Positions 911 through 50,577 are shown, counted from the first letter of the stretch. The stretch: 64,000 nucleotides of DNA from an uncultured Gammaproteobacteria bacterium (GCA_964569575.1 CAZMTL010000001.1:67503-131502); one strand, 5' to 3'. Program-made: numbers and translations. The notes: generated from the sequence alone by a model not told the origin.

Positions 911-955
911 AAAAAGAATCGCCTGTCCAGGTAAAGCCTGGGCAGGCGTTTTGTG
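911..955. terminator. bidirectional rho-independent terminator between convergent pyk and 967..1395 gene
   Basis: 12-bp stem cgcctgtccagg/cctgggcaggcg (920-948) with loop taaag, A-run upstream and TTTTG downstream. Confidence 0.6.
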
Positions 956-966
956 TTCGGGTCGTG

Positions 967-1395
967 CTAGATCGGTTGGATCCGCACGTGCTTGCCGTCG
1001 AAGTGGAGTCGCACGACTTCGACAGGACTTCGTCGCCCGAAGAAGATGTGCTCGGCCCCGTTTGGGATGAACACTTCGCGTACCGTTGCTTCTGGGTACG
1101 ACGCGAACGTTGCGAGATTCGTTTTTCTCCTCGTTACAACGAATCTGGCCTTGCTGCAATCGAGCCCCACGACCAGCCGAGCACCGCTTTCGAACGTTCC
1201 GTTCGGATCTCGCCACGCCAGTCCGACGTGGCGCTTGTTCGGCCGGAAGCCGCTCATGCTTGGCACGCCGATGTGATCAGGAACACGTACGCACGCCGTC
1301 CCTTCTTCAGCTATCACGTCCTCGATCTGCGTCACAGAGAAGAGTCCTTCGCCGTCGTAACCGATCAGCCAGCACGAAACCATTGATTGAGCCAT
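967..1395 (-). CDS. hypothetical protein (142 aa) inside high-GC islet 1
   Basis: ATG preceded by GGAGGTG with 4-nt spacer; ORF about 63% GC in a roughly 47% GC background; no family recognised by eye. Confidence 0.55.
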   Translation of the reverse strand: MAQSMVSCWLIGYDGEGLFSVTQIEDVIAEEGTACVRVPDHIGVPSMSGFRPNKRHVGLAWRDPNGTFESGARLVVGLDCSKARFVVTRRKTNLATFASYPEATVREVFIPNGAEHIFFGRRSPVEVVRLHFDGKHVRIQPI

Positions 1396-1485
1396 GACAC
1401 CTCCAAAGGTTCGGACAGATTGTCATGCCAGCGCCCTGCCGTCAATCTTTTGTTTATCCTGCGCTTTGAGCGATTCGATCTTCAT

Positions 1486-2283
1486 TTATAAAAACAGTAT
1501 CAGTACAATGATTCCGAGAATAATTCGATATACCGCAAACCAGCCGTAGCTTATTTTTTGAACTAAAAAGAGGAGTGTGTTCATGGCGATTACGCCAGAT
1601 ACAAATGCGGTTACAAACCCCACCAGAATCGGAAAGACCGAGATTGCTTCACCTGATTCTATCACGTCGATAAATACCAACATGCCGGCACCGGCGATAG
1701 CGGGAATAGATAGGAGGAACGAAAATCGAGCGGCTGTTTCGCGGTTTAGTCCAGCGAATAATCCGGCACTGATGGTTGAACCTGAACGAGAGGTTCCTGG
1801 AACGAGTGCGAATACCTGTGCGCACCCAATGGCGATCGCTTGCTTCCAGCTTATTCTTGCTGGTTCCGCAACGCTTTTCTTTCTTCTTTTTTGCACTTCG
1901 TCGGCAATCCAAAGAATGATTCCCCAGACGATTAACATGATCGCGATTACCACTGGGTTTCGGAGTGAATCGAGGAATGCGTCGTTAATTAAAAATCCAA
2001 CAAACACAATCGGCAGCGTTGCCATCACAATCTTCCACCCCAGCACTCCTTCGCGGTCGTGTTTTTTGGAGAATAAACCCTGCAAAATATGCTGAATATC
2101 TTCGCGTAAAACCCAAATGATCGCACAGAGCGTTGCTAAATGCGTCGCAACATCGAACACGAGTGACTGTTCTTGCCAACCGAATAATTGCGGAATTAAC
2201 ACCAAGTGCCCCGAACTAGAAATTGGAAGAAACTCGGCGATTCCTTGCACTAAGCCGAGAATGGCGGCCTGAAATATGTTCAT
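1486..2283 (-). CDS. uppP: undecaprenyl-diphosphate phosphatase (BacA/UppP)
   Basis: Polytopic membrane protein with UppP signature motifs ISSSGHL and PGTSRSG. Confidence 0.92.
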   Translation of the reverse strand: MNIFQAAILGLVQGIAEFLPISSSGHLVLIPQLFGWQEQSLVFDVATHLATLCAIIWVLREDIQHILQGLFSKKHDREGVLGWKIVMATLPIVFVGFLINDAFLDSLRNPVVIAIMLIVWGIILWIADEVQKRRKKSVAEPARISWKQAIAIGCAQVFALVPGTSRSGSTISAGLFAGLNRETAARFSFLLSIPAIAGAGMLVFIDVIESGEAISVFPILVGFVTAFVSGVIAMNTLLFLVQKISYGWFAVYRIILGIIVLILFL

Positions 2284-2284
2284 A

Positions 2285-4915
2285 CTACTCGTCGAACGTC
2301 ACAACCTGACCTGGAAGAACGGAGGTGGATTTTGGACGTTCTTCTTTTGGCGCGCGCAATTGATCTGGCGCGTGGTCGTTTGGTTGTTTTGGTGTTTGTT
2401 GTACTGGTTGAGATTCGGGAGGCTGAACTTTTGATTTTTGTTGCCATTGCGAAAACGCCTCTTTTTGTTGAGAGTTCGCACGTGCTTGATTTGCTGTCAG
2501 ATGATTATTTTGAGACGGATTTTTGAGTGAATCGAGACTGATGCGTTCTTGCGGCACTTCCGAAGAACCTTCACCTCCCTCGCCTCTGCCTTTTCGACGT
2601 CGGCGTTTACGTTTACGTTTTTTTGTGGATTCGTCACCTGCACTGGCCGACTGTCCGTCGTTTCGCGATTGCGTTGACGCAGGACGCTGTTCGCTATCGG
2701 CTGGCGACTGACCTCCCCTAGCCTCCGGCACTAAAGGCCGGACAAGCTCTCCTTGTGGATCTGAGAAGGAGGGGGAACTCGTTCGATTTTCTTCGCGATC
2801 CGGACGCTCTCTTCTCGTCATCCCGGGCTCCGACCCGGGATCCATCGCTTCTTGCTGCGGTCGCTCGGCGCGATCTACTCGCTCTTCGCGAGGGCGTTCG
2901 CTGCGCTGTTGTGGCACTTCGCGAGACGGTCGTTCGATAGACTCACTTCGCTCCAGCTTTGGAGCCGTTGGATCTGGAACAGGGCTTGATAGCGGTTCGC
3001 GTTGAATTACTTCGCTTCGGCTTTCGGTTTCACCGTCTACCTTCGGCGCCTCTTCCATATGAAGGACTTCAGACGCTTTAAAAGCTGGAAGCGCTGTTGT
3101 TTGTTCAGATGTTATTGTCGGCTCTTTTGCTTCTGGTGCTTTTTTCTCGGACCGAGTTTCGTTGCGTTTTAATGAATCGAGGGAGATGGTTGCCTTTGGT
3201 TGATCTACCACCAACTCACCGTCTGATACTTTTTGTACCGGCGGAAGTTTTGGTTCTGATTTTTTTGGCTCTTCGCGTTTGCGATCGCCTTTGCGGTCAG
3301 ATGACCGCGGCTCGCTTGAACCGCCTCGACCTCCTTTTGGTTTGCTTTTTGATTTCGCTCGTTCTTCCTTTATGATCGGCATGCAGTCGTCGCAATAAAT
3401 TGGACGTGAACGATCGAGTTCAACTGGTAAACCGAATTCTTTGTTACAACGTGTACAGTTGTAATTGTGTTTGTATTTTTCTTTGCGTTTTTCTTTCGCT
3501 TCCTTCAACGCTGAATCGAATTCCTTCTCCATGTCGATGTCATCGCCTCCAAAACCGCTCCATCGCACTACGTGTTCCTCGATTTTTTCTCGAGGAATTG
3601 AATAGCGCTCGCGGGATTGGGTAATCACCTTTTGCTCACTGTCGGTTCGGTGTGCAATTGGCGCGAGCGTTGCGGCAGAAAACGGTTGTGATGTCACACC
3701 GTCGATCATTAGCTTCAGGTAGATGCTGAATTTTGGCAGGTTAATAATGTCTTCCGGCGTAAAGCGAGGCATGAATTCATCTTCCATGAATACGGCGTCG
3801 GGCGAACCTACGCGGAATGAAATGATGGTTCCAACGTTTCCGAACACGGCGTCGCGCACTTCTTCGGTTAACTGAGCGATGTATTGGTGCGCCATGATCA
3901 AATTCAATCGGTACTTTCGGGCTTCGGACAAGATTGAGGCAAATGATTCCACGGCGAAGTTTTGGAATTCGTCTACGTACAAATAAAAATCTGCGCGATC
4001 TGCTTCGGGCGTGTCGACGCGTTCCATGGCGGACATTTGAATTTTTGTAATGATCATTCCACCGAGCAAGCGCGAAGCATCTTCCCCGATTCGTCCTTTT
4101 GACAGGTTGATGATGAGGATTTTTTCTTCATCCATGATTTTACGGATGTTGATAGTGGACTGTGCTTGCGCCACGATGTTTCGAACGATTGATGCAGAAA
4201 GGAACTGTCCTACTTTGTTTTGGATCGGAGCCACGGCTTCGGTTGCGAATTTGTCCTGGTACTGCGCGAATTCTTTTACCCAAAACTGACGGACGATTGG
4301 GTCTTTTACGTTTGAGATGATTTCTTTTCGATAGTCCTTGTCGGAAAGTACGCGGTTGATTCCTAGCAATGTTGAACCTGGGTTGTCGAGCAACGCTAAA
4401 ATTGTGTTGTTTAAGATGTATTCCATTCGAGCAGACCATACGTTTTCCCAGATCTTTTTGAATACACCCATCATTCCGGCGGCGACCAAATGTTTCATTT
4501 CGTCGTCGACCGATTCTAAAATGTTGAACCCGACCGGGTACTGTACATCGGCTGGGTTGAAATACACGACATCGTTTATGCGCCACGACGGGATGTAGTC
4601 GAGTAATTTTTCAGCTGTGTCTCCGTGCGGATCCACATAGCAGGCTCCGTGTCCGGCGTAAATGTCGGAGAGGATCATGTTTTCGAGCAGGGTGGTTTTT
4701 CCCATCCCTGTTTTTCCGATCACATACGTATGACGGCGGCGATCGTCTGTTTTTATGCCGAATTTTCGCATTTGGTTTCGGAAATTGGTTTTTCCGAAGT
4801 AAATGATGTCATTTTCGTGATCGTGTGGGTAGCGCATATTCATAAGGAAATGGATCAGCAATTTGAACGGAAGCGTCTGCGTCGATGTTGTTTCGCGACA
4901 TACGGACGACTTCAC
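2285..4915 (-). CDS. VirD4/TraG/TraD-like type IV coupling-protein-family ATPase with C-terminal zinc ribbon and roughly 350-aa disordered K/R/E/P-rich tail
   Basis: Walker A VIGKTGMGKTT followed by YVDPHGD (TrwB/TraD AAD-binding-type NTPase); CTRCNKEF...YCDDCMP zinc ribbon; tail has KKRKRKRRRRKGRG patch; 33-nt gap to upstream gene. Confidence 0.8.
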   Translation of the reverse strand: MKSSVCRETTSTQTLPFKLLIHFLMNMRYPHDHENDIIYFGKTNFRNQMRKFGIKTDDRRRHTYVIGKTGMGKTTLLENMILSDIYAGHGACYVDPHGDTAEKLLDYIPSWRINDVVYFNPADVQYPVGFNILESVDDEMKHLVAAGMMGVFKKIWENVWSARMEYILNNTILALLDNPGSTLLGINRVLSDKDYRKEIISNVKDPIVRQFWVKEFAQYQDKFATEAVAPIQNKVGQFLSASIVRNIVAQAQSTINIRKIMDEEKILIINLSKGRIGEDASRLLGGMIITKIQMSAMERVDTPEADRADFYLYVDEFQNFAVESFASILSEARKYRLNLIMAHQYIAQLTEEVRDAVFGNVGTIISFRVGSPDAVFMEDEFMPRFTPEDIINLPKFSIYLKLMIDGVTSQPFSAATLAPIAHRTDSEQKVITQSRERYSIPREKIEEHVVRWSGFGGDDIDMEKEFDSALKEAKEKRKEKYKHNYNCTRCNKEFGLPVELDRSRPIYCDDCMPIIKEERAKSKSKPKGGRGGSSEPRSSDRKGDRKREEPKKSEPKLPPVQKVSDGELVVDQPKATISLDSLKRNETRSEKKAPEAKEPTITSEQTTALPAFKASEVLHMEEAPKVDGETESRSEVIQREPLSSPVPDPTAPKLERSESIERPSREVPQQRSERPREERVDRAERPQQEAMDPGSEPGMTRRERPDREENRTSSPSFSDPQGELVRPLVPEARGGQSPADSEQRPASTQSRNDGQSASAGDESTKKRKRKRRRRKGRGEGGEGSSEVPQERISLDSLKNPSQNNHLTANQARANSQQKEAFSQWQQKSKVQPPESQPVQQTPKQPNDHAPDQLRAPKEERPKSTSVLPGQVVTFDE
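2710..2850. repeat. MITE-like composite hairpin repeat, copy 5 (inside CDS tail; core A forward, core B inverted, extra ccggcactaaaggccgg hairpin)
   Basis: ctcgtcatcccgggctccgacccgggatccatcg at 2814-2847 and ctccttgtggatctgagaaggaggggg at 2741-2767; matches copies at 33731, 46955, 24331, 22536. Confidence 0.6.
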
Positions 4916-4948: not shown

Positions 4949-6568
4949 TTAAAGTGGAAGATTTCGAGGGATTTCTTCGTTGTTGATTGGTTCGTCTGCC
5001 AAATCGAGCCCTGGTGGAAGCGGCGCCGGCATTCCTGGGCGAGGCATACTAGGGTCGATAAATTCTTCAGGAACGTGCGCTGGTGCCGGAACCTGTACTG
5101 GTCGTGACTGAACTTGCGTGGTACGTGTAGACGTTGGCGCTGTTGGATGCGGCGCGACAAGCGGCTTTGCTTGTGGAAGCGACGATGCTCCATAACCTCC
5201 CTGCACATCGGGCGATGTACGGTTTAGATTTGGCAAATCTGGTTCGTCGACACCAGCGAATTGTAATTCGTTTGGCGCTTCTGAACGTCGCGCGCCAAGC
5301 GATGTAAGTACCGGTGTTCGCGCGTCCGCTGCTGGGAAGTGGAAAATAGTCGCAAGTTCTTCAACGTTTAAAATGTACGGGCTCGCTCCTGTTCCAAACG
5401 ATCGTGCCTTGAACCGATTCACCAAATTACGCTGCCTTCCAGGCAATTCCCATTCTTGCCAGAAGTAATCGTCGTTTGGCGTTGCTGGAGCGTGAAGTCC
5501 AAGCTTGTTCAAGTTTAAATGACCGTACTGATTCCAAATTCCTTTGGTCATCGATGCGATCGTTCCTTTTCGGAAAATTGGCTTTTGTGCAGCGTAGTAA
5601 AAGCGGATTTTTGTGTACCAACCAATTTTTGAAATCTTATTCGCGATTCCGTCGATTTTTTCTTTTTCACGTGGAGTGATTTTGAACGCCGCGAAATCGT
5701 CGGCCTTCTTTTCTTCGCTCGCCGATCCTGTTAAAGAACCACCGGTCACCTGCTCGACGATTTCAGCGGGCAACCAAGAAATCACGTCCGCAATGCCGTT
5801 TCCTGATTTTTTCTTTTCTTCTTTTCCGTACAAACGATTGATTTCTTTCTCCCCTTTCTTCAACCAATCGTCGTCCATGATTGGGTAAATCAACAGCTGC
5901 ATAAAGTAGTACTCCCCTGGCTGCATGCGGCCGATTCCTTCGAGCAACGAAAGAAGAGGATCTTTGAATCGCTGATCCTTTTCACCCGTATGCTCGAAGC
6001 TATCCCATGTTCGAATCGGGAGATAATCTGCATTTGCTAGTTTTACTTCCGAACCCCATAAATCCCAGTTTTCGTTCGGGAATTCTTTTGGCACCACATC
6101 GACGTAATCTTCGTCTACTTCGCTGATTTGTGCTTCTGGGTACTGAGCGTAAAATGCGGCTTCGACCATGTCACGATACTTTGTGACGGTGCGGATATAA
6201 AAACGCACTTCGCCGCCAAGACTGGCGATTTCGAAACTGAACCATCCTTGGATTTTTCCGTCGAGCCATTTTTCTTTCCACGTTGGTGTTGATTTGATTC
6301 CGGCCAAACTGGTAAAGAAGTTTTCCATTCCTTTCGGTGTTTGAATTGCATCTCCAGGAACGTTAACTCGTAATAAATTCCACTTGAGCTTGGAGACGTA
6401 CAACCCTTGTCGGGCGTCGAGCCAGAGTTCGAGCAACCCCCAAATGACAACACAAAAAATAAGAAATCCACCAATGGTAAAAATGATATTGCGTGCCAAT
6501 ACTTCAAACGGCGTTATTTCGAGGTATCGGTTGACACTCTCGATAAGCTCGGAAAAAAATGTTTCCAT
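4949..6568 (-). CDS. hypothetical membrane protein (539 aa, N-terminal TM helix, Pro-rich C-terminus), gene partner of VirD4-like ATPase
   Basis: Single N-terminal hydrophobic segment IIFTIGGFLIFCVVIWGLLELW; co-directional, 33 nt upstream of ATPase gene; no known family recognised. Confidence 0.75.
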   Translation of the reverse strand: METFFSELIESVNRYLEITPFEVLARNIIFTIGGFLIFCVVIWGLLELWLDARQGLYVSKLKWNLLRVNVPGDAIQTPKGMENFFTSLAGIKSTPTWKEKWLDGKIQGWFSFEIASLGGEVRFYIRTVTKYRDMVEAAFYAQYPEAQISEVDEDYVDVVPKEFPNENWDLWGSEVKLANADYLPIRTWDSFEHTGEKDQRFKDPLLSLLEGIGRMQPGEYYFMQLLIYPIMDDDWLKKGEKEINRLYGKEEKKKSGNGIADVISWLPAEIVEQVTGGSLTGSASEEKKADDFAAFKITPREKEKIDGIANKISKIGWYTKIRFYYAAQKPIFRKGTIASMTKGIWNQYGHLNLNKLGLHAPATPNDDYFWQEWELPGRQRNLVNRFKARSFGTGASPYILNVEELATIFHFPAADARTPVLTSLGARRSEAPNELQFAGVDEPDLPNLNRTSPDVQGGYGASSLPQAKPLVAPHPTAPTSTRTTQVQSRPVQVPAPAHVPEEFIDPSMPRPGMPAPLPPGLDLADEPINNEEIPRNLPL

Positions 6569-6677
6569 ATTCTTCCTTTAGTATAACATAATGCGACTGT
6601 TTTTCTGTACACAGATGTGGTGCACGACTGCCTGTTCTTGCAACAAAAAAACAGGCTTTCGCCCGTTTTTTTGTGTG

Positions 6678-7577
6678 TTATTTTTTTGTGAACTTTTCCC
6701 AAGTCACCAACAACGGACTTGCAAGGAAAATGGATGAGTAGGCTCCGCTGACAATTCCGATAATCAGCGTAAGGATAAACGGCTTTGTCGTCACTCCTCC
6801 GAAGAAGAATACGGCAAGGAGCACAAGAAGCGTGGTGAGTGAGGTATTAATCGATCGTCCGAAACTTTGCACAATACTTCGATTCACAACTTCCGAAAAC
6901 GGTTCGTCGGAATGTCGGTTGAGCGTGAGGTTTTCGCGCACACGGTCGAAGATTACGATCGTGTCGTTAATTGAATATCCCAGAATGGTTAGGATTGCTG
7001 CGATAAACGCTGTGTCTAATTGGTAACCGGCTACTTTTCCAAGGACAGCAAATACTCCAAGTGGGATCAGGACGTCGTGAAGAGCCGTTACGATTGTGAG
7101 CACTCCGTACTTCCATGACGCGATCGGCTTTGCAACCGTACGGAATGACCAAGCGACGTAGACAACGATAAGCGCAAGTAAAATGATGACAGCGATAATT
7201 GATTTTTGCTTCAATTCCTTTCCGATCACCGGACCAATTGAATCGAAACGTGTTTCTTCGAATGCTCCGTGGCGTTCTTGCAGCGTTGCGGTAATTGCAT
7301 CGTGCGCTTCACGGTCGATGGATTCCATTCGGACAATGACCACGTTGTCATCACCGGTTTGTGTTGTTGGTGAGTAGCCAAGTTCTTGAATGGTCGAGCG
7401 GACATCTTCTGATGAAACCGTGTTTTCAAACTTTACTTCCATTAATGTTCCTCCTGTAAAATCGATTCCAAGCTGGAGCCCAAAGACCAGAATGGCGACA
7501 ATCGAAGCAATCGATAGGGCGCCCGAAATAGCAAACCAGATTTTTGAGTGGCGCACGATGTGCAGTGTGTTTTTCAT
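6678..7577 (-). CDS. secF: protein translocase subunit SecF
   Basis: GIDFTGGT motif, 6-TM SecF topology; immediately downstream of secD. Confidence 0.92.
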   Translation of the reverse strand: MKNTLHIVRHSKIWFAISGALSIASIVAILVFGLQLGIDFTGGTLMEVKFENTVSSEDVRSTIQELGYSPTTQTGDDNVVIVRMESIDREAHDAITATLQERHGAFEETRFDSIGPVIGKELKQKSIIAVIILLALIVVYVAWSFRTVAKPIASWKYGVLTIVTALHDVLIPLGVFAVLGKVAGYQLDTAFIAAILTILGYSINDTIVIFDRVRENLTLNRHSDEPFSEVVNRSIVQSFGRSINTSLTTLLVLLAVFFFGGVTTKPFILTLIIGIVSGAYSSIFLASPLLVTWEKFTKK

Positions 7578-7578
7578 A

Positions 7579-9591
7579 TTATTCTTCTGAATTTCCGTTA
7601 TACAACCATTTTGCTCGTAACACCTTCACTTCACTTGCGGCTTTTAAGAAGACACGCGTGACGAAAATCGCTGTAAGCATCGATACAATAATTCCGATCG
7701 CGAGCGTGAGGGCAAATCCTTTAATGAAGCTTGTACTCATGATGAATAAGATGCCGGCCGCGATAAGTGTTGTTAGGTTTCCGTCGCGAATTGAAGTCCA
7801 TGCTCGGCGGAATCCTTCGTCGATCGCCGTTCCCAAGTCGCGTCCAGAACGTAGTTCTTCTTTTAGACGTTCGAAGATGAGTACGTTTGCGTCAACCGCC
7901 ATTCCGATCGACAGAATGAATCCGGCGATGGAAGAAAGCGTCATGGTGACGCCTAGCCATTTGTAGACAGCTAAGTTGATCATTGCGTAAAGAAGAAGCG
8001 AGATAACCGCGATCAATCCAGCAAGTCGGTAGTAAGCGATCATGAAAATCGCTACAAGCGCGAATCCGATCAATGCAGCTTGTACACTTCGATCAAGCGA
8101 TGCTTGTCCGAGCGTTGGTCCAACGGTTTGCTGAGCGATCAGTTCGATAGGCACTGGAAGCGCTCCTGCGTTCAATCGCTGAGCGAGCAATTTTGCTTCG
8201 TCGAGCGTGAATGAACCAGTAATACTTGCTTGGCCTCCGTAAATCGCTTGCTGAATAACTGGTGCCGAAATCAATTCTCCGTCAAGGAAAATTCCCATGA
8301 TTCCGCCAATGTTTTGCTCTGTAATGGTCGCAAATGCTTCCGATCCTTCGCCGTTAAATTCGAGCAAAATGTACCAACCGCCTGTGTAAGTGTCTTGAGT
8401 TACTGACGCCCGTCGAATGTCTTCACCAGAAAGTTCGGTCGATTGCCACGGGTCGATGTCCGCAATGTCGGAAAGCGTAGTCCATGGAAGTTCGATGTGG
8501 GCGATTTCGTAGGCGTTTGCAGAACGCGAATCTTGTCGGAAGATGATGTGGAAACCAAAATCTGTTTCGATTACATCCGAAATACGATTGTCGCGCATTG
8601 CGAACAACGCGTCGTTGAATTCTTCCACCATCTGCCCTTCTGCTACCCACCCAAGACTTCCAGCCGCATTTACTGCGGTTGGGTCGTCGGATCGTTCGGC
8701 AGCGATTTCGCCAAAGTTCTGCGTCGTGACTTCGCCTGCGATTTCGTTAATGAGTACTTCTGCTTCTTCGCGCGTTCGTGTTTGTTCACATCGCGTTGTT
8801 CCTTCAAAACAAATCAAAATGTGCGATGCTTCGACTTCCTGCTGTTCTTCGACCGAGAGGACATTCACAATGTGCATCGCAGATGTGCTTTCGTACAAAC
8901 CATCTACCACTCCTTCCTCAATTCCGTCTTCGACCAACTGCTGTACCAAGCCGTCAAATACCGTGTGCGTTGAATCAACAAATCCAACGTATCCGCCGCT
9001 TACTGACGTTTCTTCATCAACCGACAATTCGCTTGCCAGTTCTTCGAAATTTTCGCGGTCGAGTGCGCGATCAAGAATGTCGAGCGCGCTTTCGCGTTCC
9101 ATTTCCTGCGCGGCTTCGATCTGCGCCTGCTGTTCTTCGGTTGGGTCGATATCTACGTTTTCGTTCGGTAATTTGAATTCCAAAATTGGTGTTTCACCAA
9201 TCTGATCGATTGCTTCTGATACATCGAATACGCCAGCGAGATCGACAATGATACGATCACGATCTGGAACGGCCTGAACGATCGGTTCCGAAACACCAAA
9301 GGCGTTTACACGACGTTCAATTACATCCCGAATTCCTTGAAGCGCCTGATTTTTCTGACCATCTTCTACCGCTGACAAATCAGCTTGGTATTCGAGGTGC
9401 GCTCCGCCCTGTAAATCTCGCCCAAGACGAAAACCGTCTTCGTTTAATTTAAGTCCATTTAAACCAATCGCTCCAAACGCGGAATTCCATGCGGATGGAA
9501 ATGCGGTTGAAGCGGTAAAGATTCCCACAAAAAGAATGGCAAGAATACTTGCGTAAAGTCCTTTTTGGGATGCTGACGGTGATTTCTTCAT
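7579..9591 (-). CDS. secD: protein translocase subunit SecD (long periplasmic domain)
   Basis: DLQGGAHLEY first periplasmic motif, C-terminal 6 TM segments, adjacent secF. Confidence 0.92.
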   Translation of the reverse strand: MKKSPSASQKGLYASILAILFVGIFTASTAFPSAWNSAFGAIGLNGLKLNEDGFRLGRDLQGGAHLEYQADLSAVEDGQKNQALQGIRDVIERRVNAFGVSEPIVQAVPDRDRIIVDLAGVFDVSEAIDQIGETPILEFKLPNENVDIDPTEEQQAQIEAAQEMERESALDILDRALDRENFEELASELSVDEETSVSGGYVGFVDSTHTVFDGLVQQLVEDGIEEGVVDGLYESTSAMHIVNVLSVEEQQEVEASHILICFEGTTRCEQTRTREEAEVLINEIAGEVTTQNFGEIAAERSDDPTAVNAAGSLGWVAEGQMVEEFNDALFAMRDNRISDVIETDFGFHIIFRQDSRSANAYEIAHIELPWTTLSDIADIDPWQSTELSGEDIRRASVTQDTYTGGWYILLEFNGEGSEAFATITEQNIGGIMGIFLDGELISAPVIQQAIYGGQASITGSFTLDEAKLLAQRLNAGALPVPIELIAQQTVGPTLGQASLDRSVQAALIGFALVAIFMIAYYRLAGLIAVISLLLYAMINLAVYKWLGVTMTLSSIAGFILSIGMAVDANVLIFERLKEELRSGRDLGTAIDEGFRRAWTSIRDGNLTTLIAAGILFIMSTSFIKGFALTLAIGIIVSMLTAIFVTRVFLKAASEVKVLRAKWLYNGNSEE

Positions 9592-9676
9592 ACGTACGAC
9601 AAAAACTGAATCCCTCCATTATATTTATGCGCCTATTTTAGGCGGTTTTACGAAGTTTCGCAAGGAAACGTGTGGG

Positions 9677-10030
9677 CTATTCTTTTTTGAAGGTGACTTT
9701 GAATGAAGGTACCCATCGGTTGTCGTATTCGTCTTTGATTTCGACGCTTTCGTTTGCAAGGAATTTATTCAACGCTAAATCGGACAGAATTTCGCTGTCG
9801 GTTGCGATTTCGAGCTTCAAATCTTCCATCTTGTCTACCTCGGTCTGAGAATCTGCTTTTACCCCGTTTTCGAGCGATTTCTTTTCTTCCCGCAACGCCT
9901 TCATTTCTTCACCAATTTCTTTATGTCGTTCGATATGAACAAATTGATCGCGGATCATTTTATTCAAATCTCGCAGTTCGTGTTTATTTTTTTCGATCCG
10001 TTTGTAGATTTTTTCGATGTCTTGTTCCAT
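9677..10030 (-). CDS. hypothetical coiled-coil protein (117 aa)
   Basis: Highly charged heptad-rich sequence, no TM; between trhO terminator and secD. Confidence 0.55.
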   Translation of the reverse strand: MEQDIEKIYKRIEKNKHELRDLNKMIRDQFVHIERHKEIGEEMKALREEKKSLENGVKADSQTEVDKMEDLKLEIATDSEILSDLALNKFLANESVEIKDEYDNRWVPSFKVTFKKE

Positions 10031-12817: not shown

Positions 12818-13348
12818 TTACCTCGTTTTGCGTGAGCGATATAGCCGTTCGGTGAACCCGCCCTCTCGCGTGAACGCCTGCTCTAGCGCGCGAAGTTGCT
12901 GGTCGAGCAAATAATTTGTTTGGTGAACTAAACAAATCGCCACATTCGCCGCGTCATGCGAAAACGCGCTATAGGTCATATATGTCGTATAGGACCTATT
13001 CGACCTATAGGCGAGCGCACGAATTTCGAGCGCTCGCGGGTCGCGCGAATTCCACTGCTCGAACGCGCCCTGGCGTAGGTAGTCTTCGTAGTCCAACAAC
13101 AACTCTTCCTGACTCGCGCGTGCAACGCGGACTAGTTTCAGCTCCGTCTTTTTCGAAGTACCTGAAGTTTGTGATCCTTCGGCAATATTTTGCCGGCCAG
13201 AACGCGCCGCGTGAATCATTTGGTCGCGCATGCGCCAATTCTTTACGAATTTTTCACAAAACTGCACCGTGAAGTCGTATACGATCGTCGCATTCTGATA
13301 ACTTTTCAATTCTCTGAATCCGCCGTGAGCTGAAATTATTTTATTCAT
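12818..13348 (-). CDS. four-helix-bundle protein (TIGR02436-like, '23S rRNA intervening-sequence protein' family) with extended C-terminus
   Basis: ARSGRQNIAEGSQ..SKKTELKLVRVARASQEEL matches the NIAEG core of the family; start set at ATG 13348, downstream of hairpin terminator 13362-13400. Confidence 0.6.
   Translation of the reverse strand: MNKIISAHGGFRELKSYQNATIVYDFTVQFCEKFVKNWRMRDQMIHAARSGRQNIAEGSQTSGTSKKTELKLVRVARASQEELLLDYEDYLRQGAFEQWNSRDPRALEIRALAYRSNRSYTTYMTYSAFSHDAANVAICLVHQTNYLLDQQLRALEQAFTREGGFTERLYRSRKTR
12964..13016. repeat. 'TATAGG' palindromic element, copy 1 (inside 4HB ORF)
   Basis: gcgctataggtcatatatgtcgtataggacctattcgacctataggcgagcgc; inverted repeat CTATAGGTC/GACCTATAG; about 75% identical to 18566-18620. 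Confidence 0.5.
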
Positions 13349-13361
13349 AGTTCGATCAAAA

Positions 13362-13400
13362 AAAGAACCCCCGCAAAACGGGAGTTCTTTTTTCCATTGC
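13362..13400. terminator. bidirectional hairpin terminator
   Basis: A7-gaacccccg-caaaa-cgggagttc-T6. Confidence 0.5.
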
Positions 13401-13433
13401 ACCGCGAATTTTACTTCGCGTCAATGTGGATAA

Positions 13434-13971: not shown

Positions 13972-16740
13972 CTAAGCCCCGTGACATTTCTTAAACTTCT
14001 TTCCACTTCCGCAGGGACATGCTTCGTTTCGGCCTACGTTTGAATAGTCCGCGCCTGGCGCTGATTGGGATGGCGCTGAAGCGAGCTTGTTTGTTCGTGC
14101 TGCGACTGGGTTGCCCATTGTTTTTTGGGCACCTTGAAGGGTTAGTTTTGCTTTTTCGATTAAGCTTGGGGCTAGCTGCACCACTTGTTGGGTTGTGATG
14201 GCTTGGCCTAGGACTTTGAAGACGTTGTAGACGACTTCTTTTTGAATCGCAACTTGTAAGTTTTCGAACATTTCGAAGGCTTCGCGCTTGTATTCAATGA
14301 GTGGGTCGCGTTGGCCGTAGCTGCGGAGTCCGACGGAACGGCGTAGGTATGTCATTTCGTCTAGATGCCGAACCCACATGTTGTCGTAGGCGCGTAACAT
14401 TAATGTTCGGTACATCCGATTGAGCCGTTCTTTTTCGGGAAGTTTTTCTTCCGCGAACGCCATTTTTGATTTCGCTTCTGCGACAAACCCTTCGATCACA
14501 AACGAACGTTGCGTTGCAAGACGTTCTTTGTCGCGCGAAATTTCTTTCAATTCTTGCGCGACGTTTGATTCGAATTCTGCGCTGATTGGCGCGATCGTTT
14601 TTAGGACTTCGATAATTTCTTTTGGATCCCAATCTGCTTTTTCTGTCTTGTTTGCAAACTCTTCTGGCACTTCTGCAGCGCTAGAACCTGTGTGGAACAA
14701 CACGACGCGCTCAACTTCTTCTTCAACCATTTCCAAAATCTTTTCTGCGAATCCTTCTTCTTGTTTAAGCAGTTCGCGGCGTTCGGTGTAGATGGCAGTT
14801 CGGTGCTTGTTCAATACGTCGTCGTATTCTAGAACGTGTTTTCGAGAATCGAAATGACGTCCCTCGACGCGTTGCTGTGCTTTTTCGAGCGAGTTCGAAA
14901 TCATCTTACTTTCGATTGGCATTGTTTCTTCAATCTTGAGTGTTTGCATCACTTTCTTTGCACGATCGCTTCCAAAAATGCGCATCAATTGATCGTCCAT
15001 CGAAACGTAAAATTGTGTCGAACCTGGGTCGCCTTGTCGCCCGGCTCGTCCTCGCAACTGGTTGTCGATGCGTCGCGAATCGTGGCGTTCGGTTCCGATT
15101 ACGTGCAATCCGCCTAGCGCCTTTACCGCTTCTTGTTCTTCCTTATCGAACGGCTGACCGCCAAGCATGATGTCGACTCCGCGTCCTGCCATGTTTGTCG
15201 CTACAGTTACTGCCCCGCGTCGACCGGCTTGCGCGATAATTTCTGCTTCGCGTTCGTGGTTTTTTGCGTTCAATACTTCGTGCTTCACACCTCCCTTTGT
15301 CAGAAGTTGCGAAAGAAGTTCGTTGTCTTCAATCGAAATGGTTCCAAGCAACACGGGCTGCCCTTTCTGCTGTCGCATTTTTACTTCTTCTACCACCGAC
15401 AACAACTTCCCTTTTGTGTTTTGATAAATACGATCGTTCAAATCTTCGCGGGCGATTGGATTGTTGGTTGGCATCTGTACTACTTCCAACTTGTAGATTT
15501 TCGAAAATTCTTCTGCTTCGGTTGCCGCTGTTCCGGTCATTCCCGAAAGCTTGTTGTACATGCGGAAATAATTTTGGAAGGTGATCGTTGCCATCGTACG
15601 ACTTTCTCGGTTCACCTGAACTCCTTCCTTCGCTTCGATTGCTTGGTGCAATCCGTCACTGTATCGACGTCCTTCCATCACGCGTCCGGTAAATTCGTCG
15701 ACAATTTTAACTTCCCCATTTTGCACAACGTATTCTTTGTCTTTTTGAAATAACGCTCGCGCTTTGAGTGCTTGTTCAGCGTGGTGAATGTATTCCAATC
15801 CTCCGCTTGTGTAGAGATTTTCTACACCAAGACGTTTTTCGAGTGTCTCGATTCCGGCATCGGTAAACGTTGACGCACGCATTTTCTCGTCGATGTTGTA
15901 GTGCTCGCCTTCTTTCAAATCTCTTACCAATTCCGCGAAACGGAAATAGAGATCAGCTGATTCTTCCGCAGGAGCCGAGATGATGAGCGGCGTGCGGGCT
16001 TCGTCGATTAAGATTGAGTCGATTTCGTCGACAATCGCGTAGTGAAGTTCGCGCTGCACACGGTCTTCTTCGCGCGTTACCATGTTGTCGCGCAAGTAAT
16101 CGAATCCGAATTCGTTGTTTGTTCCGTACGTAATATCTGCCGCGTACGCTTCACGACGACTTACCGGTCGCAAAAAGTCCATCTGAACTTTGAACGAACC
16201 TGTTTGGTCGCGTTCTTCATCTTCTTCCTTCGCTGCTTTGAACGATTCGTCGTAGATGTATCCGCTTTCGTGCTGAATGCAGGCGACGCTTAATCCAAGA
16301 AATGAAAAAATCTGTCCCATCCAAACCGCGTCACGCTTTGCAAGGTAGTCGTTTACTGTTACGACGTGTACGCCTTTTCCTTCGAGCGCGTTTGCGTAGA
16401 CGGCTAGTGTTGAGGTAAGCGTCTTTCCTTCACCTGTTCGCATTTCGGCAATTTGACCTTTGTGTAGAGTGAGCCCTCCCATCAGCTGAACATCGTAGTG
16501 TCGTTGACCAAGCGTGCGACGAGCGGTTTCGCGTACAATCGCGAATGCTTCATGAATCACGCTGTCGAGCGCCGTGCCTTCCTGAACTTGTTTTTTGAGG
16601 TCGAGCGATTTCTGCTTTAATGCTTCGTCCGACAAGCTAGCCAAACCTGGTTCTAGGTTGGTTATTTTTTCTGCTTCGGTTCGTAATTCTTTTAACGTTT
16701 TCTCGTTCGGATCACCGAAAATTTTGGTCAAAAAACTCAT
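13972..16740 (-). CDS. secA: preprotein translocase ATPase SecA (922 aa); track ORF 13972..17196 is an N-terminal read-through into the GC-rich islet
   Basis: True start MSFLTKIFGDPNEK at 16740; DEAD-motor and C-terminal zinc-finger CPCGSGKKFKKCHG. Confidence 0.95.
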   Translation of the reverse strand: MSFLTKIFGDPNEKTLKELRTEAEKITNLEPGLASLSDEALKQKSLDLKKQVQEGTALDSVIHEAFAIVRETARRTLGQRHYDVQLMGGLTLHKGQIAEMRTGEGKTLTSTLAVYANALEGKGVHVVTVNDYLAKRDAVWMGQIFSFLGLSVACIQHESGYIYDESFKAAKEEDEERDQTGSFKVQMDFLRPVSRREAYAADITYGTNNEFGFDYLRDNMVTREEDRVQRELHYAIVDEIDSILIDEARTPLIISAPAEESADLYFRFAELVRDLKEGEHYNIDEKMRASTFTDAGIETLEKRLGVENLYTSGGLEYIHHAEQALKARALFQKDKEYVVQNGEVKIVDEFTGRVMEGRRYSDGLHQAIEAKEGVQVNRESRTMATITFQNYFRMYNKLSGMTGTAATEAEEFSKIYKLEVVQMPTNNPIAREDLNDRIYQNTKGKLLSVVEEVKMRQQKGQPVLLGTISIEDNELLSQLLTKGGVKHEVLNAKNHEREAEIIAQAGRRGAVTVATNMAGRGVDIMLGGQPFDKEEQEAVKALGGLHVIGTERHDSRRIDNQLRGRAGRQGDPGSTQFYVSMDDQLMRIFGSDRAKKVMQTLKIEETMPIESKMISNSLEKAQQRVEGRHFDSRKHVLEYDDVLNKHRTAIYTERRELLKQEEGFAEKILEMVEEEVERVVLFHTGSSAAEVPEEFANKTEKADWDPKEIIEVLKTIAPISAEFESNVAQELKEISRDKERLATQRSFVIEGFVAEAKSKMAFAEEKLPEKERLNRMYRTLMLRAYDNMWVRHLDEMTYLRRSVGLRSYGQRDPLIEYKREAFEMFENLQVAIQKEVVYNVFKVLGQAITTQQVVQLAPSLIEKAKLTLQGAQKTMGNPVAARTNKLASAPSQSAPGADYSNVGRNEACPCGSGKKFKKCHGA

Positions 16741-16817
16741 ACACGCACGATTTTTTTCTGCTGGATTAACGAGGCTATCTTGCCTCAAAAATGAGAAAAG
16801 ATCAATTTTTCCTGTTA

Positions 16818-16856
16818 CCAAAACGCAAAACCCCGCGAACGCGCGTTCGCAGGGTA
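16818..16856 (-). terminator. rho-independent terminator downstream of cupin gene
   Basis: Palindrome ccccgcgaacgcgcgttcgcaggg followed (minus strand) by TTTTGCGTTTT. Confidence 0.6.
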
Positions 16857-16877
16857 AGCCGATGCTGGGCTCGGGTA

Positions 16878-17327
16878 CTAGTTGACGACGAACTTGTCTT
16901 CGGGTCCGCCGCCGCCGATGTTGATCACCGAGGCCCGGAAGGCCTGCGTGTGCAGAACCTCGTGGACTGCATTGGGCGCTACGATCACGATGCCACCCGC
17001 GGGCACGTGGTACGTCTCCCCGTCGATCCAGATGGTCATCGTGCCGTCGAGCACGGTGTAGATCTCGGTGCCGACGCGGTGGTAGTGACGATCCTCCTTC
17101 GCGCCGTGGGTGAACACGGCGACTTCGAAGGGGGTCGCGCCTCCGCCCGTGACGATGACCGGGCATCGCCCGTTCTCGCCGCTGTCGTGGCTCCACACCG
17201 ACTCGGTGGCCTCGCTCTCAGTTCGGGCGAACAAGCCGACCACGGCCAACTTGCGGGCACAGCGGCCACCGTCCATGAAGTTCGGATCCTTGTCGATCGC
17301 AATGGGGAACACAACCAAGGACTTCAT
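16878..17327 (-). CDS. cupin-domain protein (149 aa) in high-GC islet 2
   Basis: GGAGG 5 nt upstream of ATG 17327; two-motif cupin pattern (..HGAKEDRHYHRVGTEIYTVLDG.. / ..YHVPAGGIVIVAPNAVHEV..). Confidence 0.72.
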   Translation of the reverse strand: MKSLVVFPIAIDKDPNFMDGGRCARKLAVVGLFARTESEATESVWSHDSGENGRCPVIVTGGGATPFEVAVFTHGAKEDRHYHRVGTEIYTVLDGTMTIWIDGETYHVPAGGIVIVAPNAVHEVLHTQAFRASVINIGGGGPEDKFVVN

Positions 17328-17482
17328 CAGACCTCCTTCGGCAGGGCCGAGTTGCGGGATGCAACGCTTCAAACTCTCATATTTTGGCTAAATAGTCAAG
17401 AATACATTGACAAAAGGCTTATTTTTTGCTATTCTGCGCGGTTCTGTTTTGGTAGAAAAACCCCAACGAGGAGAATGACCAG

Positions 17483-17845
17483 ATGGTCAAGTCAGCGCCG
17501 AAGAGTTCCGAAAATTCGCGCACATGCGCACTTCCGCTCGACAAGAATCCGTACAAGCTCTGCTGCCTGCAGATGCTGCAGGATTCGAGCATGATGCAGA
17601 CCGAGATGGAGCGGATGGGCGCAAAGGCGGTGATCGATCGCATCCGCGGATGCTTTCCCGGTCAGATCGTCGACCTTCGGCCGCTCGACCTCTCCAAGAT
17701 CGACGTGACGGGAGTGAACTTCCTTCCCGACATGACGATCGTCAGCTTCGGAATCTTCCAAGCCGTCAACGCTCACCTCGCCTTCTTCGACGGAGAATCC
17801 ACAGTGAAGGCACGGGTCATCGCTCCACCCGAGCTGCGACCATGA
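17483..17845 (+). CDS. hypothetical protein with pentapeptide-repeat-like C-terminal half (120 aa), high-GC islet 2
   Basis: GAGGAGA 9 nt upstream of ATG; QIVDL/RPLDL/SKIDV/TGVNF register. Confidence 0.5.
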   Translation: MVKSAPKSSENSRTCALPLDKNPYKLCCLQMLQDSSMMQTEMERMGAKAVIDRIRGCFPGQIVDLRPLDLSKIDVTGVNFLPDMTIVSFGIFQAVNAHLAFFDGESTVKARVIAPPELRP

Positions 17846-17981
17846 ACATCTCGAGGACCCGGACGACAACTGTCGCCGGGTCCTCTACTCACCTGAGAGT
17901 TTCATTTTGTGATGAAACGTTCGGGTGAGCACTGAACTGCCACATGTTGTGGTAGGTTGAGTGGCTTTTGGAGGGGGAAGT

Positions 17982-18515
17982 ATGCGTAAGCATAAGGCTC
18001 ATCATCACGGGCCGCGACGCGACCGCTACGGTCGCGCGCACGGAGCCGGTAGGGCTCCGCGGTTCGAGCAGAAGAATGCCGCGATCAACGCGGCCTTCAC
18101 CGACAGCCAAGGTGAAGCGAGCGATGCGCTCAACGAGCAGCTCAACGGCGTTCACGATCGTCTCACGGACCTGATCTCCGTGCAGATGCATCGTCAGCGT
18201 CAACCGACGCTGCGCGACATCCACGACTCTCGGTCCGAACTCACCGCCTTGAAGGTCGAGATCGACGACATCTACAGCGCCCTGCGGCAGGGTGGCGTGA
18301 TCCGAGAGGTCGCGCTGCGGATCCAGAAGCTCCGAGGCGTGATCGGTGATCACCTGCTGATGCTCATGCTGATGCAGATGGATCTCGAGAACGACCACCG
18401 CGCTGCGAGCAACACGCCGCAGTGCAACTTCGCACACGACGCCGCCCCGCTCACTGACGCAGGGCCGATCTTCCACGACGTGCCCGACGTCACCGAGGAC
18501 GCGCCCTTGAACTAG
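17982..18515 (+). CDS. hypothetical His-rich protein (177 aa), high-GC islet 2
   Basis: GGAGGGGGA immediately upstream of ATG 17982 (MRKHKAHHHG..); followed by hairpin 18538-18561. Confidence 0.5.
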   Translation: MRKHKAHHHGPRRDRYGRAHGAGRAPRFEQKNAAINAAFTDSQGEASDALNEQLNGVHDRLTDLISVQMHRQRQPTLRDIHDSRSELTALKVEIDDIYSALRQGGVIREVALRIQKLRGVIGDHLLMLMLMQMDLENDHRAASNTPQCNFAHDAAPLTDAGPIFHDVPDVTEDAPLN

Positions 18516-18537
18516 AGCGCGTCTCACACACACGAAC

Positions 18538-18561
18538 GCCCGCGAGTTTTCACTCGCGGGC
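18538..18561 (+). terminator. stem-loop (possible terminator) closing high-GC islet 2
   Basis: gcccgcgag-ttttca-ctcgcgggc, weak T tract. Confidence 0.4.
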
Positions 18562-18565
18562 GTTA

Positions 18566-18620
18566 TCGCGTTTATAGGTCGCATAGGGCCTATAGGACTT
18601 ATTGGACCTATGGAGGGCAG
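18566..18620. repeat. 'TATAGG' palindromic element, copy 2 (intergenic, abuts hpf stop)
   Basis: tttataggtcgcatagggcctataggacttattggacctatgg aligns with 12964-13016. Confidence 0.5.
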
Positions 18621-33846: not shown

Positions 33847-33883
33847 ACGTGCTCCTCGAATACGTTTTAACAAAATAAAGAAG

Positions 33884-33905
33884 GTCAACGTTTCACGGTT
33901 GACCC
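33884..33905 (-). terminator. terminator after pentapeptide gene A
   Basis: ggtcaacgtttcacggttgacc hairpin followed on minus strand by T-rich tract. Confidence 0.5.
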
Positions 33906-33929
33906 TCGCGGGTGCTGTGGAGTTGTACG

Positions 33930-34343
33930 CTAGCAGTCGAGGCGATCCTCGGCTGCGATGCGACTCAACGCATGCTCGGCGCGCTGATGATTGATGATGA
34001 TCAGCTGCTTGGCGGTCGCAATGGGCGTTCCGAGAGAAGCGCCCCAATTGGCCTTGGCGACTCCACACGCCTTCCGAATGTCCATCCGCTCGACCCAGGC
34101 GCCGCTGAAGTCTGCCCCGGCGATGTTGGCATTGTCCCACTTCGATCCCTGCAGGTGCGCGCCGTTGAACTTCACGAACCTGGCGCGCAAACCCGTACAG
34201 TCCGCCGCGTACATGCGCGCGTCGTGCATCGTCTTGCTCTCATGCTCCACCTTGGGACGCTTGTTGCGATCGGCATTGCGCTTACGCCACTCCTCCAGGG
34301 CTCGCGCGCCGCCGATCTTCCGGATCTTCTTGATCAGACTCAT
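33930..34343 (-). CDS. pentapeptide-repeat protein (137 aa), high-GC islet 3
   Basis: GGAG 7 nt upstream of ATG 34343; consecutive A(D/N)(L/F)xG pentads: GAHLQ/GSKWD/NANIA/GADFS/GAWVE..KANWG. Confidence 0.75.
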   Translation of the reverse strand: MSLIKKIRKIGGARALEEWRKRNADRNKRPKVEHESKTMHDARMYAADCTGLRARFVKFNGAHLQGSKWDNANIAGADFSGAWVERMDIRKACGVAKANWGASLGTPIATAKQLIIINHQRAEHALSRIAAEDRLDC

Positions 34344-34694
34344 GTCAAACTCCTTCTTCGCGCTGTGCGAAGGGCGTAACTTGCCATATTGTGTGAATCG
34401 CGTCAATTCGCGCTGCCTGCAAAAAGAAACACCCCCATTTCTTGCGGAACAGGGGTGTGAGTGCGCTTTTGTGCCGCGCGTAGCGGCGTAGTTAGCGCTT
34501 TCGTTGTCGTACCGTCCTTCTTCGAGCGCGTTGTGCTCGACATCGTGCCAGAATGGCTTCGCGGTCGAGCTTGAGTGAAGTGGGTCCGAACACCAGTTGG
34601 CGTGGGCCCATTCCGCAGGGCGGTGATTCGTCGTGGGACGAAATGACCGGATTCTGCGGTTCGAACTCGGTATCGAGCGGATGGCGGCGCCAGG

Positions 34695-35156
34695 CTACCA
34701 CCACGAATAGCCCGTCATGTCATCAAGCTGATCGTTGAAGATGCGTTCGTCCTTCTTCGGCAGCGCGATGTTGTTCGGGGAAGTCAGTGGAGCGTTCAGC
34801 TCGGGGCGGCGCGAGTTGTCGGCGGCGCCCTTGATGCGTGCGAAGTAGTCGCGCGCGATCACGTCTGCGATCACCGAATCACACAGCGGCACACCCTTGC
34901 AGTTGAACTTCACCGTACACTGACCACCTCGGGAGATCAGTTTCACGCCACGCAAGTCCGCGTCGGTGATGTCGGCCCGCTTGGTGAAGACCACGTTCTC
35001 GAGCGTCAGATCGCCCAAGTTCTTGCCGGTCAGATCTTCGTCAATCTCCACGTTGCGCAGAACACGACGGCCGTCCACCGTCTCCACTCCACGCAGTTCG
35101 TAGATCTCGGTCTCCTGAACCGGAAACTGAAGCACCTTGCCCTCTCGAATGCTCAT
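34695..35156 (-). CDS. pentapeptide-repeat protein (153 aa), high-GC islet 3
   Basis: AGGAGG 4 nt upstream of ATG 35156; EDLTG/KNLGD/LTLEN/VVFTK/RADIT/DADLR/GVKLI pentads. Confidence 0.75.
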   Translation of the reverse strand: MSIREGKVLQFPVQETEIYELRGVETVDGRRVLRNVEIDEDLTGKNLGDLTLENVVFTKRADITDADLRGVKLISRGGQCTVKFNCKGVPLCDSVIADVIARDYFARIKGAADNSRRPELNAPLTSPNNIALPKKDERIFNDQLDDMTGYSWW

Positions 35157-35228
35157 GTACCCTCCTGGTGGGCAGCAAAATCTCACATTTCTGACTCAGC
35201 GTCAAACAAAAGAACGCCCGTAGGCGCT

Positions 35229-50551: not shown

Positions 50552-50577
50552 CGCCACTCGGCGTTATTTTGTTTTAG
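50552..50577 (+). terminator. rho-independent terminator of rpmG
   Basis: aacgcc-actc-ggcgtt followed by ATTTTGTTTT; same hairpin as 52754-52769 in opposite orientation. Confidence 0.6.

Follow-up and report, generated by a model that had tools for sequence, protein, structure and literature searches.

Acquired islands are detected in bacterial chromosomes by their atypical composition, a signature of the Lawrence-Ochman type, and the foreign DNA is usually AT-richer than its host. Phage morons are self-contained units of one gene, equipped with a promoter and a terminator, whose guanine + cytosine (GC) content differs and which are inserted between two prophage genes. Here, a GC-rich segment at positions 950–1440 (islet 1) was analyzed in a 64,000-nucleotide (nt) stretch of DNA (GCA_964569575.1 CAZMTL010000001.1:67503-131502), which is referred to throughout as the window. 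Islet 1 holds one open reading frame (ORF) of 142 amino acids (aa), orf142, on the minus strand between genes for pyruvate kinase (pyk) and undecaprenyl-diphosphatase (uppP). We put at roughly 55% the probability that the segment is a small horizontally acquired insertion with a foreign signature, comprising one gene unit with its own Shine-Dalgarno (SD) site that would be transcribed mainly by read-through from uppP. The segment is distinguished by the anatomy of this unit, by atypical composition, by an SD that contrasts with those of native genes and by its location at a synteny break, and its product has no credible homologue among 15 billion proteins.

Genomic islands and horizontally transferred genes account for up to 13% of Patescibacteria genome length (PMC12455944). 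Islet 1 resembles the genomic islets and islands reported in these bacteria (PMC12455944) in its atypical GC content, both overall and at third codon positions (GC3), its synteny break, its absence from relatives and its content of accessory or unknown genes. It differs from genomic islands in measuring only 0.5 kb, in holding one gene and in being GC-richer than its host, and from classical islands in that an integrase, a tRNA, flanking repeats and an identifiable donor are lacking and codon usage is intermediate. As in morons, a single gene with its own translation signal and terminator contrasts in GC with resident neighbors that are left undisrupted; the terminator that such units carry is provided by a hairpin at 920–948 with a minus-strand T-run, and is common to orf142 and pyk. 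Unlike morons, islet 1 lies beside uppP, pyk and sec genes, has no PHROG, phage or IMG/VR match, and is more likely to be transcribed by read-through than from its own promoter. Integron cassettes are likewise small single ORFs with a 3′ hairpin, and units of similar size recur along this chromosome, but the islet 1 hairpin is a canonical terminator with A- and T-runs, and the units are scattered instead of standing in an array. We reject integron-cassette and transposon origins, as no common ends or repeats were present and no integrase was found among 20 scanned genes. The hairpins of the islets were mutually unrelated and terminator-like, which speaks against a common attC site, no dedicated attC model having been run.

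Taken alone, orf142 is one more small atypical accessory gene, of a kind that is common in bacteria and has been described in bulk for Patescibacteria. The locus offers two independent marks of foreign genes in a genome of the Candidate Phyla Radiation (CPR), namely GC3 and a strong SD where most genes are without one. A relative from another sample carries an island of the same style at the same position, and donor searches might point to partners of WWE3/Katanobacteria.

Composition, translation signal and terminator of islet 1

Sliding-window GC was 0.579 over 911–1440 and 0.583 over orf142, against a mean of 0.477 for the window, in agreement with the first-pass annotation of a GC-elevated block in a chromosome of ~47% GC. 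The ~63% GC given there for the block was too high: 58% (57.9%) was measured, and 65% was reached only at 100-bp peaks inside 911–1440. The region is in the top 3.6% of 429-bp windows in the 64 kb, with a GC step near 1440 on the uppP side. For 44 native ORFs, GC3 averaged 0.47 (sd 0.056, maximum 0.60), relative to which the GC3 of orf142, 0.678, has z = +3.7. GC3 was at least 0.678 in only 2 of 1304 in-frame native windows of 143 codons (0.15%), both in pyrH. This UMP-kinase gene (40411–41115) has a 441-bp peak at 40531–40970 (GC 0.578, GC3 0.687), in which GC at first, second and third codon positions (GC1/2/3) is nearly that of orf142. It is the sole native gene with local GC and GC3 equal to those of orf142, and it has no SD.

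Codon usage was scored as the log-likelihood ratio per codon of an islet model over a native model. The ratio was −0.05 for orf142, −0.48 ± 0.13 for natives (maximum −0.25) and +0.16 to +0.40 for the genes of two other GC-rich islets in the window (islets 2 and 3, described below). Codon usage of orf142 is outside the native range yet intermediate, not islet-like, which is compatible with a donor of moderate GC or with an acquisition old enough to have been partly ameliorated. The synonymous-codon likelihood of orf142 under the native model was unremarkable (z = −0.85). Compared with core genes in GC, GC3 and codon usage, as the first-pass annotation had proposed, orf142 is distinguishable from natives by GC3 (by the z-score above) and intermediate by codon ratio.

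orf142 (967–1395, minus strand, 142 aa) was characterized by ORF listing, codon-position GC and family searches, and the single minus-strand gene of this length that had been annotated was recovered, with an ATG start. The Shine-Dalgarno sequence GGAGGTG lies at 1398–1404 on the minus strand, with its GGAGG core (1400–1404) 4 nt before the ATG at 1395–1393, which is the first start codon of the frame. The spacing had been written as GGAGGTG-4-ATG; the strength of the site stands, and the spacing is corrected to GGAGG-4-ATG, that is, GGAGGTG-2-ATG. The SD:anti-SD duplex energy was −12.5 to −13.1 kcal/mol, the strongest in the window. For native genes the median was −3.9 kcal/mol and 6 of 44 reached −9 kcal/mol, in line with the earlier statement that most native genes have a weak SD or none. 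GC1/2/3 of orf142 was 0.615/0.455/0.678 (chi-square test of codon-position periodicity, p = 4e-4), and the order GC3>GC1>GC2 fits the minus-strand frame and is the pattern expected for a coding sequence of ~58% GC. The predicted product has a mass of 15.8 kDa and a pI of 8.6, with no transmembrane segment, signal peptide or hydrophobic segment.

The stop codon is 19 nt before the hairpin of an intrinsic terminator at 909–957, identified by terminator scan and folding and composed of an A-run (909–915), the GC-rich hairpin (920–948) and a T-run (949–957). The hairpin has 13 pairs, 9 of them GC, is the strongest in the window by terminator scan, and folds with −20.1 kcal/mol (z = −3.41 versus shuffled sequence). 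With the A-run 5′ and the T-run 3′ of the stem, it has the features of the bidirectional terminator described at first pass, and we take it as a genuine one, predicted to close pyk on the plus strand and the uppP-orf142 unit on the minus strand. Strong intrinsic terminators were also found on native genes, so the terminator itself is no foreign mark. On the other side, the 90-nt spacer between the uppP stop and orf142 (1396–1485, minus strand) contains no terminator and is no more stably folded than its shuffled versions (z = +0.17), so that the description of the islet as bracketed by hairpins fails on the uppP side. A scan for sigma-70-like promoters reported none on the minus strand of 1396–1485. 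A promoter-like TTGACG (1445–1440)-15 nt-GACAAT (1424–1419) on that strand, read by eye, is weak and of sub-optimal spacing.

Judged from these signals, orf142 is a real gene unit of SD, ATG, ORF and terminator, because its codon-position periodicity is significant, its ATG stands behind the strongest SD, its stop is close to the terminator and no RNA-type structure is present. A structured non-coding RNA was rejected as a reading of islet 1, which had no Rfam match at the gathering threshold or at E ≤ 1 and folded no more stably than shuffled sequence (z = −0.87 for the minus strand and +0.61 for the plus strand).

orf142 had no match in Pfam (zero families at E ≤ 10), NCBIfam, PHROGs, PADLOC or PDB sequences, and alternative frames of islet 1 had none in Pfam. 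In a word-indexed search of 5.8 billion clustered proteins, orf142 matched only itself. An exhaustive phmmer (HMMER) search of 1.84 billion representatives returned orf142 itself and P0002 only, the latter being a 1614-aa eukaryote-type protein with 12 PAN repeats. P0002 was rejected as a homologue: its E value of 2e-11 sums 8 repeat copies against one 35-residue query segment and reflects repeat-amplified chance similarity, and a single PAN copy scored ~35 bits, too low for significance in a database of this size. A ~35-residue motif of orf142, G-x-A-W-R-D-P-x-G-x4-G, resembles the start of PAN/Apple repeats, but no Pfam PAN model matched orf142 at E = 10, and one of three aligned cysteines is kept. 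Searches of plasmids and phages (tblastn/blastn) gave nothing but a chance match at E = 0.5. IMG/VR was scanned with orf142, with three genes of islets 2 and 3 (orf153, orf177 and a cupin gene) and with a two-sequence alignment of orf142 and a 171-aa ORF from the related contig L009 (see below), with no match, and a PDB profile search with the same alignment gave nothing usable. The PADLOC defense models contained no family for orf142 or any other islet ORF. A single-sequence AlphaFold2 model had a predicted local distance difference test score (pLDDT) of 36.6 and was unusable; the product is predicted to be beta-rich.

Host lineage and the junction downstream of uppP

The 3′ part of pyk occupies 32–910 on the plus strand (PF00224 on the full-length product, in L001), converges with orf142 and has native composition (GC3 0.42). 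The uppP gene (1486–2283, minus strand; BacA family, PF02673) is directly upstream of orf142 on the same strand, so that the position between pyk and uppP is as first annotated. The closest uppP product, 64% identical, was from a metagenome-assembled genome (MAG) of candidate division WWE3 (Katanobacteria); the next were 61–53% identical, some of them from Patescibacteria contigs. Scans of genome and metagenome contigs with uppP found distant relatives only (64% identity once, 34–37% otherwise), and the native proteins uppP and hpf were singleton clusters. The lineage is therefore barely sampled. By its nearest sequenced relative, the chromosome is judged to be that of an ultra-small, WWE3-like CPR bacterium.

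Synteny was compared in ten related contigs (L002, L006, L007/L008, a JGI contig of 617 kb and L009–L014), in which uppP was at most 64% identical. The order DUF8128, VirD4/TrwB-like, optional hydrolase, uppP was kept in every contig whose upstream flank is present, with SecD/F upstream of the DUF8128 block wherever a contig reaches that far; L002, of 3.4 kb, holds only a hydrolase-like ORF and uppP. uppP is the last gene of this conserved secD/F, DUF8128, VirD4/TrwB-like, uppP block, and gene content downstream of it differed in 10 of 10 contigs. Neither pyk nor orf142 followed uppP in any of the ten, and pyk-uppP adjacency was seen in no relative found. orf142 was not found by tblastn in the DNA of nine related contigs, all from relatives as distant as their uppP identities indicate. 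Read from this gene order, orf142 sits exactly at a recurrent synteny break.

In L006, which is from a different SRA run and has an uppP 61% identical and a native GC of ~0.47, a 4-kb island of 0.60–0.69 GC (5800–9950) follows uppP directly. The island lies on both sides of tRNA-Glu(CTC), which is also found after uppP in L002. Its likely genes are all led by AGGAGG-type SDs, have GC3 of 0.83–0.90, and include a divergent SAICAR-synthetase (PurC)-like ORF (8389–9282, plus strand). In tetranucleotide z-score profiles, the islets of the window correlated with the L006 island at 0.59, compared with 0.31 ± 0.10 for native 4.6-kb chunks against the same island; correlation with native DNA of the window was 0.40 for the islets and 0.67 ± 0.07 for native chunks. 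The correlation between the islets and the L006 island suggests a similar kind of DNA source in the two genomes.

Three relatives carry an HD-domain gene of ~400 codons after uppP (L009:4862-6073, L011:3632-4840 and L012:10906-12219), followed in L012 by a complete type I restriction-modification system. The HD-domain genes next to uppP are SD-led and GC-elevated in L009 (0.56 vs 0.41) and L011 (0.51 vs 0.40). These two are syntenic homologues (28% identity, E = 2e-36), so raised GC does not in every case mark recent, independent transfer.

Proposed horizontal acquisition and its alternatives

If islet 1 was horizontally acquired, its DNA would have come from an SD-using, GC-richer source, either in an older acquisition that has been partly ameliorated or from a donor of ~58% GC. 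Integration would have been by illegitimate recombination, as judged from the lack of any visible att site, target-site duplication or integrase. Transcription of orf142 would proceed mainly by read-through from uppP, since no terminator and only a poor promoter-like site are found between them, and would end at the terminator common to convergent pyk; translation would initiate at the gene's own SD. The product may be a soluble, beta-rich cytoplasmic accessory protein of 15.8 kDa.

Acquisition by horizontal transfer, as proposed in the first-pass annotation, is favored by GC3, the strong SD, the synteny break and the absence from relatives, and is tempered by the intermediate codon usage and the lack of a donor or integrase. 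The actinobacterial host named there as a possible donor is pure conjecture, because no donor was identified. Several observations weigh against acquisition. The lineage is sparsely sampled, and a fast-evolving native gene would look orphan too. The codon ratio of −0.05 is intermediate rather than like that of the other islets, and a segment of pyrH, a housekeeping gene, matches orf142 in GC and GC3. Islet 1 has no flanking direct repeats, inverted ends or target-site duplication; no tRNA occurs anywhere in the window; and no integrase or transposase was present among the 20 native genes scanned, which are part of the genes of the window and have housekeeping or other functions unrelated to mobility (among them MurB, Mur ligase, SHMT, XseA, QueA, MetK, SOD and cyclophilin). 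No donor or homologue was found among the 5.8 billion clustered proteins, the 1.84 billion representatives, plasmids, phages or IMG/VR, and the pLDDT of 36.6 gives no structural support that the product folds.

Alternatively, orf142 may be a native, lineage-specific, fast-evolving small gene, with GC raised by within-genome fluctuation and an orphan only through sparse sampling, which we consider unlikely but not to be set aside lightly. Native uppP and hpf are likewise singletons and the closest uppP is only 64% identical; the synonymous codons of orf142 are unremarkable under the native model; pyrH equals orf142 in GC1/2/3 over 441 bp; and the GC-elevated HD-domain genes of L009 and L011 are syntenic, so that raised GC need not mean recent transfer. 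What speaks for acquisition over a native origin is a GC3 reached by only 0.15% of native windows, a codon log-likelihood ratio beyond the native range, a location exactly at the synteny break and the strongest SD in the window, strong SDs being otherwise found mainly in the clearly foreign-looking islets.

The segment could also be a non-functional remnant of foreign DNA in which a frame of 142 codons is open by chance or decay. ORF length is weak evidence for a gene here, as a frame of 142 or more codons is open in 22% of dinucleotide shuffles of the region and the islet 1 region itself has five ORFs of more than 90 aa that overlap one another; no homologue was found in any frame tested, and the structure model was of very low pLDDT (36.6). 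The specific frame of orf142, however, stays open in just 2.2% of shuffles, its codon-position GC periodicity is significant (p = 4e-4), and the SD and ATG at the first start, with a terminator 19 nt past the stop, have the layout of an intact unit that recurs in other islets. A remnant is on this evidence quite improbable.

More doubtful still is an origin in an accessory pool restricted to the clade, possibly a mobile element or virus of WWE3-like CPR that lands after uppP and tRNA-Glu, rather than in a GC-rich cellular host. It draws on a 171-aa ORF in L009 (7858–8373), ~3 kb downstream of uppP, with a GC of 0.60, a GC3 of 0.76 and a terminator-like hairpin behind it. This ORF and orf142 were reciprocal best matches among 201 kb of related loci, and their similarity is collinear, with the common motifs WLIxxDG and GFxPx5GxxWRxPxG. 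The match had E = 0.02–0.055 by tblastn (70–200 kb of loci), E = 9e-5 by pairwise BLASTP and z = 5.4–6.1 by Smith-Waterman alignment. In the contrary direction, hhalign gave a probability of 22% and phmmer 8.7 bits, and kinship of the two ORFs is unproven. The occurrence of tRNA-Glu(CTC) within the L006 island and behind uppP in L002 and the tetranucleotide signature common to islets of two genomes are also consistent with a clade-restricted pool. Against it, neither the 201 kb of related loci nor IMG/VR yielded further members of the orf142/L009 type, no gene for an integrase or another mobility function turned up among those scanned, and the window has no tRNA.

A chimeric or contaminated assembly, in which a GC-rich fragment was mis-joined into a MAG contig, would fit the metagenome-assembled source and the atypical composition but is very unlikely, as native sequence lies on both sides within 0.5 kb, the terminator is common to orf142 and native pyk, and an independent Logan assembly of SRR15237806, by a second assembler, has 0 mismatches to the window over 2843 bp that include both junctions.

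Other islets and minor features of the window

Islet 2 (16780–18620) contains a cupin gene (17327→16878, minus strand; Cupin_2, E = 1e-11), orf120 (17483–17845, plus strand) and orf177 (17982–18515, plus strand), with GC3 of 0.76–0.85. Islet 3 (33880–35215, minus strand) contains orf153 (35156→34695) and orf137 (34343→33930), the latter with a pentapeptide-repeat domain (E = 5.5e-5), with GC3 of 0.76–0.79. Starts were chosen by best SD under the same rule for islet and native genes, and those of orf177 and orf153 coincide with independent database gene calls. SD energies in islet 2 were −13.7 kcal/mol for the cupin gene, −11.1 kcal/mol for orf177 and −8.7 kcal/mol for orf120, the last with a weaker GAGGAG site, and in islet 3 were −10.8 kcal/mol for orf153 and −9.2 kcal/mol for orf137. 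A strong SD with ATG was thus present in four of the five other islet genes (all but orf120), and −9 kcal/mol or stronger was reached by 5 of 5 tested islet genes (orf142, cupin, orf177, orf137 and orf153), compared with 6 of 44 natives (Mann-Whitney p = 4e-4, Fisher p = 2e-4). Canonical intrinsic terminators of their own follow the cupin gene, orf153 and orf137 (in islet 3, at 34458–34429 and 33907–33880); orf120 and orf177 are followed by hairpins with no clear T-run. Islet 2 also has an AT-rich divergent promoter region at ~17380–17480 with a promoter-like site.

The recurrence of the islet 1 architecture at 16.8–18.6 and 33.85–35.2 kb, described at first pass, largely holds in terms of high GC3, strong SD with ATG and mostly own terminators. 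The family of cassettes proposed with it does not: the islets have no DNA or protein similarity to one another, islets 2 and 3 being unrelated in sequence to islet 1, and share no ends or repeats. The other islet ORFs, joined into one query, had no match among plasmids. In most islet genes, the GGAGG core is 4–5 nt from the start (orf142, cupin and orf153, and o211, o122, purC and o138 of L006), a short distance that may be a donor signature.

A broader possibility, speculative and in our view unlikely, is that WWE3-like CPR bacteria of different samples repeatedly take up small GC-rich, SD-led, terminator-closed units with a common oligonucleotide signature, both at a hotspot after uppP, close to tRNA-Glu, and between genes elsewhere, with one kind of unsampled GC-rich partner as a possible source. 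If so, the source could be a mobile element specific to the clade or the host cell itself, orf142 and perhaps the L009 171-aa ORF would be a new protein family from that source, and the islets would serve as a genomic fingerprint by which to identify hosts of this CPR clade.

Gene callers chose the wrong strand or an antisense frame in two GC-rich islands, islet 2 and that of L006, which is a warning for annotation. In islet 2, calls conflict between a 231-aa antisense ORF (17889–18584, minus strand) and the 177-aa sense ORF (17982–18515, plus strand), of which the latter has the better GC3 pattern. In L006, the deposited calls place a 400-aa antisense ORF (7990–9192, minus strand) over the PurC-like gene. 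The longest-ORF rule gives SecA (13972–17196) a spurious N-terminal extension of ~150 aa into islet 2.

A further islet of ~0.65 GC lies upstream of pyk, in the 1056 bp immediately left of the window start (L001:3040-3899), so that pyk is flanked by GC-rich islets on both sides. Its 176-aa ORF begins with an ATG preceded by an SD-like TAGGAG, is separated from the pyk promoter by a terminator-like hairpin, had no Pfam or NCBIfam match, and is of beta-barrel outer-membrane type in appearance, by eye only. The VirD4/TrwB-like coupling-protein homologue (2285–4915) has a low-complexity C-terminal tail of ~350 aa rich in Pro, Glu, Ser and Arg, which, especially at 2511–3100, makes a GC peak of 0.57. 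In this peak GC1>GC2>GC3, so its cause is the amino-acid content of the tail rather than foreign DNA.

The 64-kb window contains no tRNA and no Rfam family. Of two ORFs at 50574–51410 and 12818–13402, one has ATP-cone and Mrr-like restriction-endonuclease domains and the other scores 33.1 bits, just under the cut-off of 33.8, for the 23S rRNA intervening-sequence protein family. About 90% of the ORFs in the window are on the minus strand, and four giant proteins are encoded (3022, 1552, 1428 and 1123 aa), of which that of 3022 aa is highly repetitive and probably surface-exposed.

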